Part shown: positions 1,254 to 6,812 of the stretch, in pieces | Numbering within the stretch: the stretch's first letter is position 1 | Layout of the letters: the number at the start of each line of letters is the position of its first letter | Virus record (IMG/VR): IMGVR_UViG_2698536628_000019 | Reading direction: 5' to 3' (one strand) | From: a virus | Lineage: Duplodnaviria; Heunggongvirae; Uroviricota; Caudoviricetes | Length of the DNA: 7,350 bases | Notes under the pieces: model-generated | Databases searched by the model: none | The model's input: only the letters and a program-made list of their open reading frames with translations | What the model was told of the DNA's origin: nothing | Position numbers and translations under genes: made by a program

Positions 1254-1311
1254 AAAAAGGGCGGCAGAGCAGCCACGGAGTAAAACTGATACCGCCAAAC
1301 GTCACCAGAAA
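1254..1311 (-). ncRNA. dicF: DicF-type small regulatory RNA (Hfq-dependent sRNA processed from the dicB operon transcript) with 3' intrinsic terminator
   Basis: Minus-strand sequence tttctggtgacgtttggcggtatcagttttactccgtggctgctctgccgccc followed by ttttt matches the E. coli DicF sequence as I recall it, with about one mismatch. The GGCGG...CCGCC stem plus U-tract forms its terminator. Flanked by YdfC-like upstream and DicB-like downstream, the canonical order. Not verified by alignment. Confidence 0.75.
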
Positions 1312-2480: not shown

Positions 2481-2534
2481 AATTTACAAATTAAAATTTA
2501 ACTGGTCAACATGTTTATTATTAAATTTGTAATT
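2481..2534 (-). promoter_or_regulatory. Putative leftward (dicB-operon-type) promoter flanked by inverted operator-like half-sites
   Basis: On the minus strand: -35 TTGACC (plus 2504-2509) and -10 TAAATT (plus 2481-2486), 17-bp spacer. Inverted half-sites ACAAATT (2486-2492) and AATTTGT (2524-2530) bracket it. The 14-mer TTAAATTTGTAATT (2521-2534) is identical to 3762-3775 in the repressor/cro intergenic region. Promoter call is by eye against sigma-70 consensus. Confidence 0.4.
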
Positions 2535-2542
2535 GCGGGCTG

Positions 2543-2571
2543 TTGCATCAGTCCCAAAATGGGACTACTAT
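2543..2571 (+). promoter_or_regulatory. Putative higBA promoter with palindromic operator in the spacer
   Basis: -35 TTGCAT (2543-2548), 17-bp spacer, -10 TACTAT (2566-2571). Perfect inverted repeat AGTCCCA-AAA-TGGGACT at 2550-2566 lies within the spacer/-10. No SD upstream of ATG 2578, and the predicted transcription start falls at or near the ATG. Confidence 0.4.
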
Positions 2572-2577
2572 ACAGTT

Positions 2578-2880
2578 ATGAAGATTATCTCAGTTAAAAC
2601 ACTCAGGGATTTTTGGGCGGAGAATCCTGATGCAGAACAACCGCTAAGGGCATGGGTGGATGAGGCGGCAAAAGCTGACTGGAAAAGCCCAGCAGACATT
2701 AAGGCACAATACCGAACGGCCAGTATATTGAAAAACCGGCGCGTGGTATTCAACATAAAAGGTAATCATTACCGTTTAATTGTTGCAATTGCGTATCAGC
2801 GAGGATGGGTATTTGTTAAATTCATCGGAAACCACAAGGAATACGATGCTATTGATGCTGATACCATCGAACTGGAGTAA
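2578..2880 (+). CDS. higB: Type II toxin, HigB family (RelE/ParE-fold mRNA interferase), 100 aa
   Basis: Track ORF 2533-2880 begins at TTG; first ATG in frame is 2578 (MKIISVKTLRDFWAENPD...). C-terminal segment VVFNIKGNHYRLIVAIAYQRGWVFVKFIGNHKEYD matches the recalled E. coli HigB/YgjN motif (VFNVGGNELRVVAMVFF...HKEYD). Toxin-first order with antitoxin 2 nt downstream. Confidence 0.8.
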   Translation: MKIISVKTLRDFWAENPDAEQPLRAWVDEAAKADWKSPADIKAQYRTASILKNRRVVFNIKGNHYRLIVAIAYQRGWVFVKFIGNHKEYDAIDADTIELE

Positions 2881-2882
2881 GC

Positions 2883-3242
2883 ATGAACATCAAACCTATT
2901 CGTACAGAGCAAGATTATGAAGCCGCGTTGCGTGCTGTTGAACCCATGTTCGACAATGAGCCCGAAATTGACACGCCTGAGGGGGATTTTTTTGAGGTGA
3001 TGTGTTTGCTAATAGAGGAATATGAAAAAAAACATTATCCCATTGAGCCACCATCCCCAATTGAAGCTATAAGATTTCGCATGGAACAGCAGGGGCTGAC
3101 TGTGAAAGATTTGGAACCCGCAATTGGGAAAAAAAATCGGGTTTATGAGGTGTTGAATGGTACCAGAAGCCTTACGTTACCAATGATTCGCCGTCTTCAT
3201 AATCAATTTGGTATCCCCCTGGAAAGCCTGGTTGGATTATAA
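2883..3242 (+). CDS. higA: Type II antitoxin, HigA family (C-terminal XRE-type HTH), 119 aa
   Basis: Track ORF 2883-3242. SD GGAG at 2873-2876. C-terminal HTH region GLTVKDLEPAIGKKNRVYEVLNGTRSLTLPMIRRLHNQFGIPLESL resembles recalled E. coli HigA/YgjM. Starts 2 nt after the higB stop. Confidence 0.8.
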   Translation: MNIKPIRTEQDYEAALRAVEPMFDNEPEIDTPEGDFFEVMCLLIEEYEKKHYPIEPPSPIEAIRFRMEQQGLTVKDLEPAIGKKNRVYEVLNGTRSLTLPMIRRLHNQFGIPLESLVGL

Positions 3243-4068: not shown

Positions 4069-4502
4069 AAATCAAGCATGAGCACATCCGCATGGCGATG
4101 AATGCGTGGCTGCTTTATCCGAGGGTAGGGCGCAAAAAAATCGCTGATGATATAGCGACAGCATATTTTGAGCTTGAAATGACTTATCCACCAATGCATG
4201 ACACCTCTACGACAGAGGGTATTGGATTGAACATACAAAATATTTTTCGCTGGCTTGAAAAGGATACGCCTGATGCTGTTGAAAAAATTCAGGCACTAAT
4301 TCCAGCTATCCTGACTGTTCTTCCGCGTGAACTGCGTTATCACCTCAGTATTTTTGACACTGTTGAGCGCCGTGCATTACTGGCGGCCCAGGAAGCGTTG
4401 AGCACGGCAATTGATGCGCATGATGATGCAGTCCAGGCAGTTTACCGGAAAGCGTATTTCAGCGACGGCGGGTCATCCGGCGAGTCTGTTGTGGTGCATT
4501 GA
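4065..4502 (+). CDS. ydaT: YdaT-like protein (CII-like regulator family, 145 aa)
   Basis: Track ORF 4065-4502. Starts MKIKHEHI... and carries the segment KIQALIPAILTVLPRELRYHLSIFDTVERRALLAAQEALSTAIDAHDDAVQAVYRKA, which I recognise from Rac-prophage YdaT. Translationally coupled to the Cro-like gene (start overlaps stop). Confidence 0.75.
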   Translation: MKIKHEHIRMAMNAWLLYPRVGRKKIADDIATAYFELEMTYPPMHDTSTTEGIGLNIQNIFRWLEKDTPDAVEKIQALIPAILTVLPRELRYHLSIFDTVERRALLAAQEALSTAIDAHDDAVQAVYRKAYFSDGGSSGESVVVH

Positions 4503-4588
4503 TATTTATGCCAGACCCCTGCTGATTCTGTTGATTGGGGAATCACAGAATATCACCAGAGGATGGTTCGTCACAAGATGAGGCAATT

Positions 4589-5599
4589 ATGGCCGCATTA
4601 CCATACATGCAACTGTACATAGCTGATTACCTGGCTGACACCATGCATTTGTCCGCAGAGGAGCACGGTGCGTATTTGTTGCTGATGTTCAATTACTGGC
4701 AAACAGGGAAACCAATACCTAAAAACAGGCTGGCAAAAATTTCCCGTCTGACTAACGAGCGATGGGCTGATGTGGAACCATCCTTGCGGGAGTTTTTTTG
4801 CGATAACAGCGATGAATGGGTGCATCTTCGGATTGAGGAAGATCTGGCATCAGTCAGGGAAAAATTGACCAAAAAATCAGCCGCCGGAAAAGCATCTGTT
4901 CAGGCCAGAAGAAGCAGAAAGGAAGCATATGTTCAAACAAAACAAGAGAGAGATTTAACAGGTGTTCAAACAAATGTTGGTGTTGTGTTTGAACATGACG
5001 CAAACACAAAAGCAACTAATAAAGATACAGATCTAAAAGAATTAAACCCCACACATAACGTGCGTGAACGCGAGAGTATTCCGACCAGTGAGTCGCATGG
5101 TGCGCCGTTGCAGACAGCCGAACCTGAATACCTGGACGGCCTGAGCGAACCGATCGGGAAATTTTCGATGACTACTGTCTGGCAGCCGTCGCCGGATTTT
5201 CGACAACGGGCAGCAGTGTGGGGTATGGCTCTGCCTGAGCCGGAATTTACACCTGCTGAGCTTGCCGCATTCCGGGATTACTGGATGGCGGAGGGGAAGG
5301 TTTTCACGCAGGTTCAGTGGGAGCAGAAATTTGCCCGCCACGTGCAGCACGTCAGGGCACAGGTAAAACCAGTCAGCAAGGGGGTAAGCCATGCAGCATC
5401 AGGTGGCACGGCATCACGGGCAGTTCAGGAAATCCGGGCAGCACGCGAACAGTGGGAACGTGAAAACGGATTTATCAGCAACGGAAACGGCCTGGAAGCT
5501 GTGGGAGCTTATGGGGGAGGTGTATTCGAACCGCTGGACTCAGAAGAACGGGGCCGCACCTTCGAAGCTCTGGATTGCCCAGATTGGTGCGATGACTGA
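4589..5599 (+). CDS. ydaU: YdaU-like replication-associated protein: N-terminal DUF1376, C-terminal DnaT-like domain (337 aa from ATG 4589)
   Basis: Track ORF 4535-5599 begins at TTG; ATG 4589 with GAGG SD gives MAALPYMQLYIADYLADTMHLSAEEHGAYLL..., the DUF1376/YdaU signature. Segment GKFSMTTVWQPSPDFRQRAAVWGMALPEPEFTPAELAAFRDYWMAEGKVFTQVQWEQKFARH matches the recalled DnaT C-terminal domain ([29 protein letters not shown]...[20 protein letters not shown]). Confidence 0.85.
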   Translation: MAALPYMQLYIADYLADTMHLSAEEHGAYLLLMFNYWQTGKPIPKNRLAKISRLTNERWADVEPSLREFFCDNSDEWVHLRIEEDLASVREKLTKKSAAGKASVQARRSRKEAYVQTKQERDLTGVQTNVGVVFEHDANTKATNKDTDLKELNPTHNVRERESIPTSESHGAPLQTAEPEYLDGLSEPIGKFSMTTVWQPSPDFRQRAAVWGMALPEPEFTPAELAAFRDYWMAEGKVFTQVQWEQKFARHVQHVRAQVKPVSKGVSHAASGGTASRAVQEIRAAREQWERENGFISNGNGLEAVGAYGGGVFEPLDSEERGRTFEALDCPDWCDD

Positions 5600-6053
5600 A
5601 CAGCAAATCCGTCTGGTCTGCCGTCAGTGCATGGACCGCTGCCGGGCGGGTGAAACGTGGCCCCCGGACCTGGCTGAGTTTGTTGCGCTGATTTCGGAGA
5701 GTGGGGCAAATCCATTTGGTCTTACGGTGGATGCCGTGATGGAAGAGTACCGGCGCTGGCGCAATGAATCCTGGCGATACGACGGGAGTGATAAATACCC
5801 GTGGCCACAGCCTGTGCTGTACCACATCTGCCTCGAAATGCGTACCAGAGGGATTGAGCGCCAGATGACGCAGGGTGAGTTAAAACTACTTGCAGAACGG
5901 CAACTGACGAAATGGGCAAAGCATGTTGGTAACGGGATGAGTGTTCCGCCAGTGCGACGACAACTGGAAGGGGCGAAACACCCGCAAGGGCCAACGCCAA
6001 TTGAGCGGCTGAAACAGGAATACGAACGCCGGAAGGCAGCTGGTTTTATTTGA
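5391..6053 (+). CDS. Lambda P-like replication protein (helicase-loader family); start uncertain (ATG 5391 with strong SD, or ATG 5592)
   Basis: Track ORF 5391-6053. Segment WPPDLAEFVALI...VDAVMEEYRRWRNESWRYDGSDKYPWPQPVLYHICLEMR parallels recalled lambda P (FLPSPGQFVAWCRE...VDMVYEYCRKRGLYPDAESYPWKSNAHYWLVTNLYQNMR). AGGGGG SD 6 nt before ATG 5391. This start implies a 209-nt out-of-frame overlap with the YdaU-like gene; ATG 5592 would give an 8-nt overlap but has a poor SD. Confidence 0.65.
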   Translation: MQHQVARHHGQFRKSGQHANSGNVKTDLSATETAWKLWELMGEVYSNRWTQKNGAAPSKLWIAQIGAMTEQQIRLVCRQCMDRCRAGETWPPDLAEFVALISESGANPFGLTVDAVMEEYRRWRNESWRYDGSDKYPWPQPVLYHICLEMRTRGIERQMTQGELKLLAERQLTKWAKHVGNGMSVPPVRRQLEGAKHPQGPTPIERLKQEYERRKAAGFI

Positions 6054-6086
6054 ATCTGAGAAACGATTTTGTCGGAGGAAATTTTA

Positions 6087-6812
6087 ATGGAAACCGTATT
6101 TGACGCACTGAAAGCACTGAAAAGAGCCTCTTCACAGGTAGTGGCGGCCCGCCTTGGAATCAGCCGTGAAGATGCGGTCAACGAACTGTGGAAACTGAAG
6201 CGCCGCGGTGAAGCGGATAACAAGGGGTCGATGTGGTGGCTGATTCAGGCTGGTGAAAGTGAACCGGTGTCACCGGTACCGAAAGTGACAGCGCAAATGC
6301 TGACTGAGGCGATTGAACAACATGGCCCACAAACGGCGGATGAGCTGGCACTGATGTTCGGGATTACCTCCCGCCGGGCGAATTCATCGCTGGCCATGGT
6401 AATCAGCAAAGGGCGTCTGATTCGCGTGAATCAGGGCGGTAAATTTCGTTACTGCATACCGGGCGCTGATTTACCGGCAGAGCCGGAAGCTGCATCCGTA
6501 GCGGAAACCGATGGTAAAGCCTTTCCTCAGCCAGCAGGTGTTGCGTTACCAGTTCGGGAAGCAGAAACACAGGAAGAAATAAAAACGGAAAGTGTGGCGG
6601 TCACAGTGCAGTCACAGCCGTCGTTCACCAGAAAACATCCGGATGGTCTGATTTTACCATCGCTGCATGTGGCTAACCGCGAGCTGCGCCGGGCAAAAGG
6701 TCAGGTTCAGAAGTGGGAGCGAGTCTGCGCCGCGCTGCGGGAGCTGAACAAGCACCGGGATATTGTTCGACAGATTACTGATTCTTCCCGCCGTGTTGTA
6801 TCGGAAAAGTGA
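6087..6812 (+). CDS. Uncharacterised prophage protein with two N-terminal winged-helix-like segments (241 aa)
   Basis: Track ORF 6069-6812 starts at TTG; ATG 6087 preceded by GGAGG (6074-6078). Two HTH-like segments ([24 protein letters not shown]; [28 protein letters not shown]), then a low-complexity acidic linker and a basic C-terminus. Family assignment unverified (possibly a DUF1627-like prophage protein). Confidence 0.7.

Follow-up and report, generated by a model that had tools for sequence, protein, structure and literature searches.

A conserved 209-nucleotide same-strand overlap, probably genuine, between a YdaU/DnaT-like gene and a lambda-P-like helicase loader gene in a Rac-like prophage of Escherichia coli

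Long same-strand gene overlaps are known from phages and other viruses, where each frame has its own start and segments under strong constraint in one frame lie opposite disordered, variable segments of the other. In phage lambda, the initiator gene O is followed directly by the helicase loader gene P, and the two overlap by 4 nucleotides (nt). In the Rac prophage of E. coli K-12, ydaU is followed after a 6-nt gap by ydaV, which encodes a DnaC-like ATPase rather than a P-type loader, and there is no long overlap. The locus described here lies in a stretch of 7,350 nt from a member of the Caudoviricetes (IMG/VR record IMGVR_UViG_2698536628_000019), referred to below as the window. It contains a YdaU/DnaT-like gene (Y) and a lambda-P-like gene (P) that share 209 nt in different frames, an arrangement like that of the long overlaps above. 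Comparison of homologous loci together with structure prediction suggests, with a probability of about 0.85, that the overlap is genuine and conserved, and that P is translated from ATG 5391 as a protein of 220 amino acids, using a ribosome-binding site within the codons of Y. Long same-strand overlaps are already known in phages, and this pair is a new, well-supported case; no paper describing this overlap or gene pair was found in the literature.

The Y gene occupies positions 4589-5599 of the plus strand and encodes 336 amino acids (a replication initiator or replisome organizer), exactly the coordinates given by RefSeq; the frame has its first possible start at TTG 4535, the RefSeq start at ATG 4589, and its TGA stop at 5597-5599. 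The P frame, which is +1 relative to Y, opens after a TAA at 5385-5387, and from the ATG at 5391-5393 it continues for 220 codons to 6053. This full-length P gene (5391-6053, plus strand) would encode a lambda-P-type helicase loader, as indicated by the conserved ATG, by Pfam and PHROG matches, and by comparison of an AlphaFold2 (AF2) model using Foldseek. The overlap extends over 5391-5599. The predicted ribosome-binding site of P, AAGGGGGT (5378-5385, plus strand), is within the Y codons for Lys-Gly-Val, and its last G is 6 nt from the ATG. At the other end of the overlap, the junction ATGACTGA (5592-5599, plus strand) combines the Y stop with an internal codon of P, Met68, which is the P start in RefSeq and lies 201 nt downstream of ATG 5391. 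A second internal codon, Met41 (5511-5513, plus strand), is the annotated start in Salmonella, Klebsiella, Citrobacter, and others, giving 177-181 amino acids, and lies in the middle of a predicted helix (residues 25-53). GTG 5403 and GTG 5460 were also considered as P starts, but neither is kept in every close copy and both are missing from the Klebsiella copy. An internal promoter was looked for and none was found. An earlier note on this DNA, made from the sequence of the window alone, had reported the same coordinates, the 209-nt overlap, and ATG 5391 with a Shine-Dalgarno motif, all of which the sequence bears out; it left the choice between a genuine long overlap and a frameshift or sequencing error.

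Conservation of the arrangement was examined in 63 distinct copies of the region 5100-6060 taken from fetched loci, 80 of which were viral contigs. Apart from one Klebsiella phage, at 69% identity, they are E. coli copies (86-100%); sequence diversity for the analysis was drawn from viral contigs, E. coli genomes, and exact-protein look-ups, and a contig scan with the single P protein gave one locus only. In all 63 copies, no stop interrupts the P frame over at least 204 nt upstream of the junction, an ATG is present at -201, -204, or -207, and the Y frame reaches the same TGA. In the alignment of E. coli and Klebsiella copies, indel lengths are divisible by three, the exception being one single-base gap in one sequence, outside the overlap. 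More distant loci, with P identities of 50-72%, were fetched from Salmonella, Enterobacter cloacae, E. cancerogenus, Pantoea, Brenneria, Symbiopectobacterium, and three unassigned Logan assemblies; a tenth, from Pectobacterium (L104), was left out of the analysis since the P anchor motif was not found there. Eight distant loci have an overlap of 203-224 nt in the same relative frame, and each of them carries GAGG, GGAGG, or GGGAGG 5-8 nt upstream of the homologous ATG. Across all 12 lineages inspected, a GAGG, GGAGG, or AGGGGG motif is found at this distance from the homologous P ATG, so that the start codon and the ribosome-binding site of the downstream gene are conserved within the upstream gene in every lineage. 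The Y residue that supplies the "AT" of the P ATG varies (His, Asn, or Tyr), as does the next residue (Ala or Glu), while the bases AT-G are constant, which points to selection on the P start codon itself. One Logan contig (L099) has a different upstream gene that ends 68 nt before P and does not overlap it, but its P keeps a full N-terminus (217 amino acids), which argues that the long form is the native P. In this contig the other-type initiator stops at 2256-2258 and the same frame is open for another 267 nt over the first 200 nt of P (2256-2525). Whether this is a decayed overlap was considered, but the open frame has no significant similarity to Y tails (E = 0.17) and the locus was treated as non-overlapping; the open frame past the stop could be chance or a relic.

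The probability that such frames are open by chance was estimated by redrawing the codons of one frame synonymously, with codon usage taken from the non-overlapping parts, and scoring survival of the other frame. With the P sequence fixed, 1-7.5% of trials per lineage left the Y frame free of stops across the overlap; with the Y sequence fixed, the P frame survived with its ATG intact in 5-16%. Both frames hold in each of about six well-separated lineages, for which the joint probabilities are very small, and both are thus kept open across diverged homologs beyond chance. The possibility of a genuine long gene overlap raised in the earlier note is borne out by these results, the frame, start codon, and ribosome-binding site being conserved in 63 close and eight distant copies.

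The P protein also resembles lambda P upstream of the annotated RefSeq start. P matches Pfam PF06992 (lambda_P) at 56.1 bits (cut-off 26) over residues 58-187, which places it in this family, and PHROG 109 ("P-like helicase loader") with E = 7e-62 over residues 11-220; no NCBIfam model matches it. In 29 P homologs, M1, W38, W49, K52, N53, G54, P57, and W61 are invariant and M41 is at least 90% conserved, while Met68 is replaced by Leu in distant homologs. The earlier note had claimed that similarity to lambda P extends upstream of 5592, and this is upheld by the PHROG match from residue 11, the Pfam match from residue 58, and the invariance of M1 and W38; similarity beginning only at 5592, the case in which the claim would have failed, was checked and does not hold. 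In the long forms of P, a variable segment of about 27 residues is followed by the conserved sequence AW(K/R)(L/F)WE.M.EIYS.RW..KNG..PS.LWIAQ.G, and the E. coli representatives shown hardly vary in the P peptide DLSATETAWKLWELMGEVYSNRWTQKNGAAPSKLWIAQIGAM.

In lambda P, residues 1-29 form a flexible N-terminal "lasso" (domain I) and residues from about 30 to 119 form the compact domain II (PMC12661323). The AF2 model of P (mean predicted local distance difference test score, pLDDT, of 70) has disordered residues 1-24, with pLDDT below 50 for residues 1-28, and helices at 25-53, 59-66, 70-85, and 94-103, followed by lambda-P-like domains. Foldseek aligned this model with lambda P chains 9oa1_Y/Z/V of the DnaB-lambda P complex (E = 2-7e-5, probability 1.0, 199-213 columns), and residue 69 of the query is aligned to lambda P residue 81. 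The model reproduces the domain order of lambda P, with a disordered N-terminal segment, compact domains II and III, and a C-terminal segment, and by this prediction P is a protein of 220 amino acids collinear with lambda P. Set against the lambda P domain map, a protein beginning at Met68 would lack the lasso as well as two of the four domain II helices.

Both frames are under selection in the overlap, but in different parts of it. In the close copies, codon-position diversity is highest at Y position 3 (0.145) in sequence that codes only for Y and at P position 3 (0.094) in sequence that codes only for P. In 60-nt windows within the overlap, diversity first peaks at Y position 3 (0.110 at 5420-5479) and then at P position 3 (0.088 at 5465-5524); positions that are second in Y codons and first in P codons are variable at only 2 of 64 sites. 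Among variants at 5394-5465, 11 are synonymous in Y but alter the P protein, and 5 do the opposite; among those at 5466-5596, 20 are synonymous in P but alter the Y protein, and 6 do the opposite. Neither frame acquires a stop through any variant, and variant density is 21-26 per 100 nt in the overlap compared to 30-39 in the flanks. Selection changes frame at about 5465-5480, from Y upstream to P downstream, and this position puts the onset of P-frame selection some 120 nt upstream of 5592 and some 40 nt upstream of ATG 5511. A signature of purifying selection is therefore found for each frame (Y at 5391-5465, P at 5466-5599), but not for both proteins at the same codons. The statement in the earlier note that both frames are protein-like across the overlap is correct in part: it holds for Y in the first of these segments and for P in the second, but diversity and variant classes show that it does not hold for both frames throughout.

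The two segments correspond to structural features predicted for each protein. The 5' part of the overlap (5391-5465, plus strand), where the Y frame is dominant, encodes the end of the disordered Y linker and the Y helix ASRAVQEIRAAREQWE, together with the variable, disordered N-terminal residues of P (about 24), the counterpart of the lambda P lasso. The 3' part (5466-5599, plus strand), where the P frame is dominant, encodes P helices 25-53 and 59-66, which make up the first half of domain II, and the Gly/acid-rich tail of Y ending in ...DCPDWCDD. The AF2 model of the C-terminal half of Y has a confident DnaT-like domain and, beyond it, a disordered linker in which the start signals of P lie (ATG and ribosome-binding site); a helix follows at nt 5417-5464, and nt 5474-5599 encode a disordered tail (pLDDT below 50). 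The Y helix ends where the first P helix begins (nt 5463), which is also where the codon-position signal switches. In these models, each frame's ordered segment is predicted to lie over the disordered segment of the other.

Several points weigh against the proposed reading of the overlap. RefSeq and GenBank consistently annotate a shorter P (153 or 177-181 amino acids). The lineages used in the simulations are not strictly independent, and the AF2 models are of moderate confidence (mean pLDDT of 70 and 69). In the Symbiopectobacterium locus (L097) the Y frame stops early and the tail is lost, leaving an overlap of 113 nt. Between lineages, P third positions are identical at a rate of 0.426 in the overlap, which does not exceed the 0.453 found outside it, and Y-frame identity surpasses simulation by a margin (z = 4.1) barely larger than that of control blocks (z = 1.1-3.4); selection on the exact sequence of the last 42 or so residues of Y is unproven. 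A contact between the Y tail and P could be inferred only from the analogy with lambda.

Some of these points would be expected if the overlap were real but only its first 80 nt or so were dual-coding, the last 42 or so codons of Y (5474-5599) being a tolerated run-on without function. The absence of excess third-position conservation, the similarity of the Y-frame identity excess to that of controls, the many tolerated changes that are non-synonymous in Y, the predicted disorder of the tail, and the Symbiopectobacterium locus without a tail are all consistent with a run-on. However, in the P-dominated part alone the Y frame would be open by chance with a probability of 0.13-0.49 per lineage, or about 1e-3 jointly over six groups, and the Y stop is in the same alignment column in five of the six. 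P third positions in codons with at least four-fold degeneracy are enriched in G in the overlap (63/112 versus 169/459, p = 8e-4), and an ending of the form EP(L/V)D.EERG...D..DW recurs in Y tails down to 50% P identity. These comparisons of sequence argue that openness of the Y frame in the tail is selected, and a functionless run-on is unlikely, although it deserves to be taken seriously. Y tails were aligned using a protein search with the C-terminal half of Y, which returned mostly partial proteins and was used for names and for this alignment only.

Other alternatives retain the overlapping sequence but assign P a later start. P homologs found by protein search fall into three length classes, of 214-223 amino acids, 177-181 amino acids (Met41 start), and 153 amino acids (Met68 start), and these classes reflect different gene callers. 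Homologs of 214-223 amino acids are widespread, and some public records already carry a 221-amino acid form as "replication protein." If P started at ATG 5511, it would have 180 amino acids and overlap Y by only 89 nt. Met41 is at least 90% conserved, GGGAG is found 3 nt upstream, and many records give this length, but the AW(K/R)(L/F)W motif upstream of it, with its invariant W38, is kept down to 45-50% identity. The switch in codon periodicity at about 5470 is also upstream of 5511, initiation there would fall within the predicted helix 25-53, and the upstream ATG and its ribosome-binding site are universally conserved, all of which makes Met41 improbable as the start of P.

A start at ATG 5592, coupled to the Y stop through ATGACTGA and leaving the upstream P frame untranslated, has support from annotation. 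RefSeq places P there (462 nt, 153 amino acids, 8-nt overlap) at all seven E. coli loci inspected and two GenBank phage records have the same 462-nt gene, making nine loci in all, while a third GenBank record starts P still later. The E. coli and Klebsiella copies preserve the sequence ATGA(C/G)TGA, and an overlap of 8 nt is the commonest kind of gene junction. This start is nevertheless very improbable: purifying selection in the P frame and the invariant residues W38, W49, K52, N53, G54, P57, and W61 all lie upstream of it, Met68 itself is not retained in distant homologs, the 153-amino acid product would be without the domain II helices 25-53 and 59-66, and no Shine-Dalgarno motif precedes 5592. 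Judging from the conservation upstream, shorter isoforms from Met41 (minor) or Met68 may be made in addition, but would not be the sole products.

Since P is read at +1 relative to Y, the two might be joined by a programmed +1 ribosomal frameshift into an initiator-loader fusion, made besides or instead of the separate proteins, and the profile of PHROG 15931 (482 positions) is fusion-like in that it matches both. This PHROG matches both proteins over one shared stretch of the profile and is taken to be a mixed family. P has a conserved ATG and ribosome-binding site of its own, and the overlap does not qualify as a frameshift site; GAC, the codon preceding the Y stop, does not allow the +1 re-pairing known from prfB, and RNA structure around the P start (5340-5440) is not significant against shuffled sequences (z = 0.33). 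The longest of the 150 best P-family representatives has 270 amino acids, with no Y-P fusion among them. The sole fusion seen, a protein of 333 amino acids (P0106), joins the DUF1376 half of Y straight to P domain III (...AALWGAALPE followed by SGANPFGL...) and looks like an internal deletion on a single contig of one assembly, not a fusion family. A programmed frameshift is accordingly given hardly any credence. The last possibility, and the other half of the choice left by the earlier note, is that the overlap is an artefact of sequencing error, recent frameshift, or pseudogene formation, as long out-of-frame overlaps often betray indels and PHROG 15931, in matching both proteins, might hint at fusions among deposited sequences, but it is excluded for practical purposes by the same arrangement in 63 distinct close copies and in distant genera, by indels in threes, and by 100% identity to complete genomes.

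Returning to the reading of a genuine overlap with P translated from 5391, the following division of the sequence is proposed. The ribosome-binding site of P would be written into Y codons, and its own ATG would lead to a 220-amino acid loader. The last Y helix would be coded opposite the variable, disordered N-terminus of P, and the first conserved helices of P opposite the disordered Gly/acid-rich tail of Y. Y would be an origin-binding analogue of O, and its C-terminal helix and tail may recruit P as lambda O's C-terminal domain does. The overlap would then keep the cognate surfaces of initiator and loader on one recombination unit. A more speculative and rather doubtful extension is that the 209 nt code for two surfaces that touch each other (the Y helix and tail, and the P N-terminus and domain II), locking cognate pairs together through mosaic recombination, and that the nested starts at 5391, 5511, and 5592 add loader isoforms that tune assembly of the DnaB-loader complex.

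If the long form of P is correct, the findings have consequences for annotation. They reveal a recurrent N-terminal truncation of P in RefSeq; annotations of 153 or 177-181 amino acids lose the N-terminal segment and part of domain II and would mislead cloning, structural, and functional work. The locus is also a useful teaching case, as two old genes share 209 nt and the swap of the dominant frame can be located to within about 10 nt. As the C-terminal segment of the initiator is inseparable from the loader by recombination, a testable idea about cognate partners in mosaic lambdoid phages follows.

The organization of Y is consistent with a modular initiator. DUF1376 (residues 5-87) is followed by a linker, a DnaT-like single-stranded DNA-binding domain (residues 192-258), and the C-terminal helix and tail (residues 268-336), which are inside the overlap. 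A Pfam scan of Y (E <= 0.01) found only DUF1376 (PF07120, 90.6 bits) and DnaT (PF17948, 62.6 bits), with no Phage_rep_O match, and Y is not an O-type protein by this measure. PHROG 3992, "primosomal protein," matches residues 1-336; PHROG names also include "replication initiation protein," and other sources use "replisome organizer." O157 and other prophages have only the stretch from about 5019 to 6100 of the window in common and carry other N-terminal halves, either HTH_36/DnaD_N or without a Pfam match. The sharing patterns of K-12 and O157 imply that the initiator is modular and that the C-terminal half of Y travels with P. Breakpoints of homology at about 5019-5036, a mosaic boundary common to the K-12 Rac and O157 prophages, coincide with a candidate replication origin (4929-5016), which has direct and inverted repeats of 10-16 nt of the TGTTCAAACA type and an AT-rich dip. 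The GC fraction is 0.33 at 4950-5049, between the two Y domains, and the candidate origin would be placed as the lambda ori is inside O. Modularity may extend to the loader: many distant proteins of 120-260 amino acids match only the N-terminal domain II of P (profile positions about 20-100), near their own N-termini, which raises the possibility that this domain is a widespread, independent module.

The window comes from a Rac-like lambdoid prophage of E. coli, of which it represents the immunity and early-right region. Positions 4500-6100 match E. coli strains 12689 and 7_26_9A with 100% identity, and the 12689 locus was read for annotation. The gene order is HigB/HigA, a cI-like repressor on the minus strand, Cro/YdaS-like, YdaT/cII-like, Y, P, DUF1627, and DUF977. 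The HigB/HigA-type toxin-antitoxin pair (2533-3242) is directly upstream of the prophage repressor gene. Further upstream, a full-length DicF small RNA (1259-1310, minus strand; Rfam RF00039, 75 bits against a gathering score of 48) adjoins a dicB-like gene, and between these two is a run of 104 N (masked or unknown bases, 1097-1200); open reading frames listed across this run are meaningless. DNA matching the Y-P stretch is found in 1842 of 5426 complete E. coli genomes, O157:H7 prophages included, and covers at least 80% of the query in 197. The earlier note had called the pair an unusual replication module, with no lambda-O-type initiator in the window, but this frequency contradicts it, and Y is probably the O-analogue ("phage replisome organizer" in some sources). 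One further record with the E. coli-type module, at 87% identity, is named "Actinobacillus phage vB_Apl-pPE4" (PP818812.1), and its host assignment looks doubtful.

Among described systems, lambda O-P is similar in several respects. The pair has the same operon position, after cro and cII-like genes, with the initiator followed directly by the P-type loader; P is collinear in the predicted structure with lambda P domains I-IV; an AT-rich stretch with repeats is inside the initiator gene where lambda has ori; and the initiator is modular, with an exchangeable N-terminal half. It differs in that the initiator here has DUF1376 and a DnaT-like domain in place of Phage_rep_O, that P is only about 15-17% identical to lambda P, and, as the distinctive feature, that the overlap is 209 nt long rather than 4 nt. 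The K-12 Rac prophage shares the racR/ydaS/ydaT-like regulatory context, and the N-terminal 148 residues of Y are 94% identical to those of K-12 YdaU, but the latter has another C-terminal half. E. coli DnaT is similar to Y over the single-stranded DNA-binding domain only (Y residues 183-260 match DnaT positions 80-156, as well as Pfam PF17948); Y has extra N- and C-terminal parts, is located in a phage replication operon, and scores 94.7 bits against the DnaT equivalog model NCBIfam NF002770, well below the cut-off of 201. Unlike overlapping genes in general, the pair does not consist of an established gene and a short, novel reading frame nested within it; here both genes are old and widespread, they have their ends in common, and dominance passes from one frame to the other midway.

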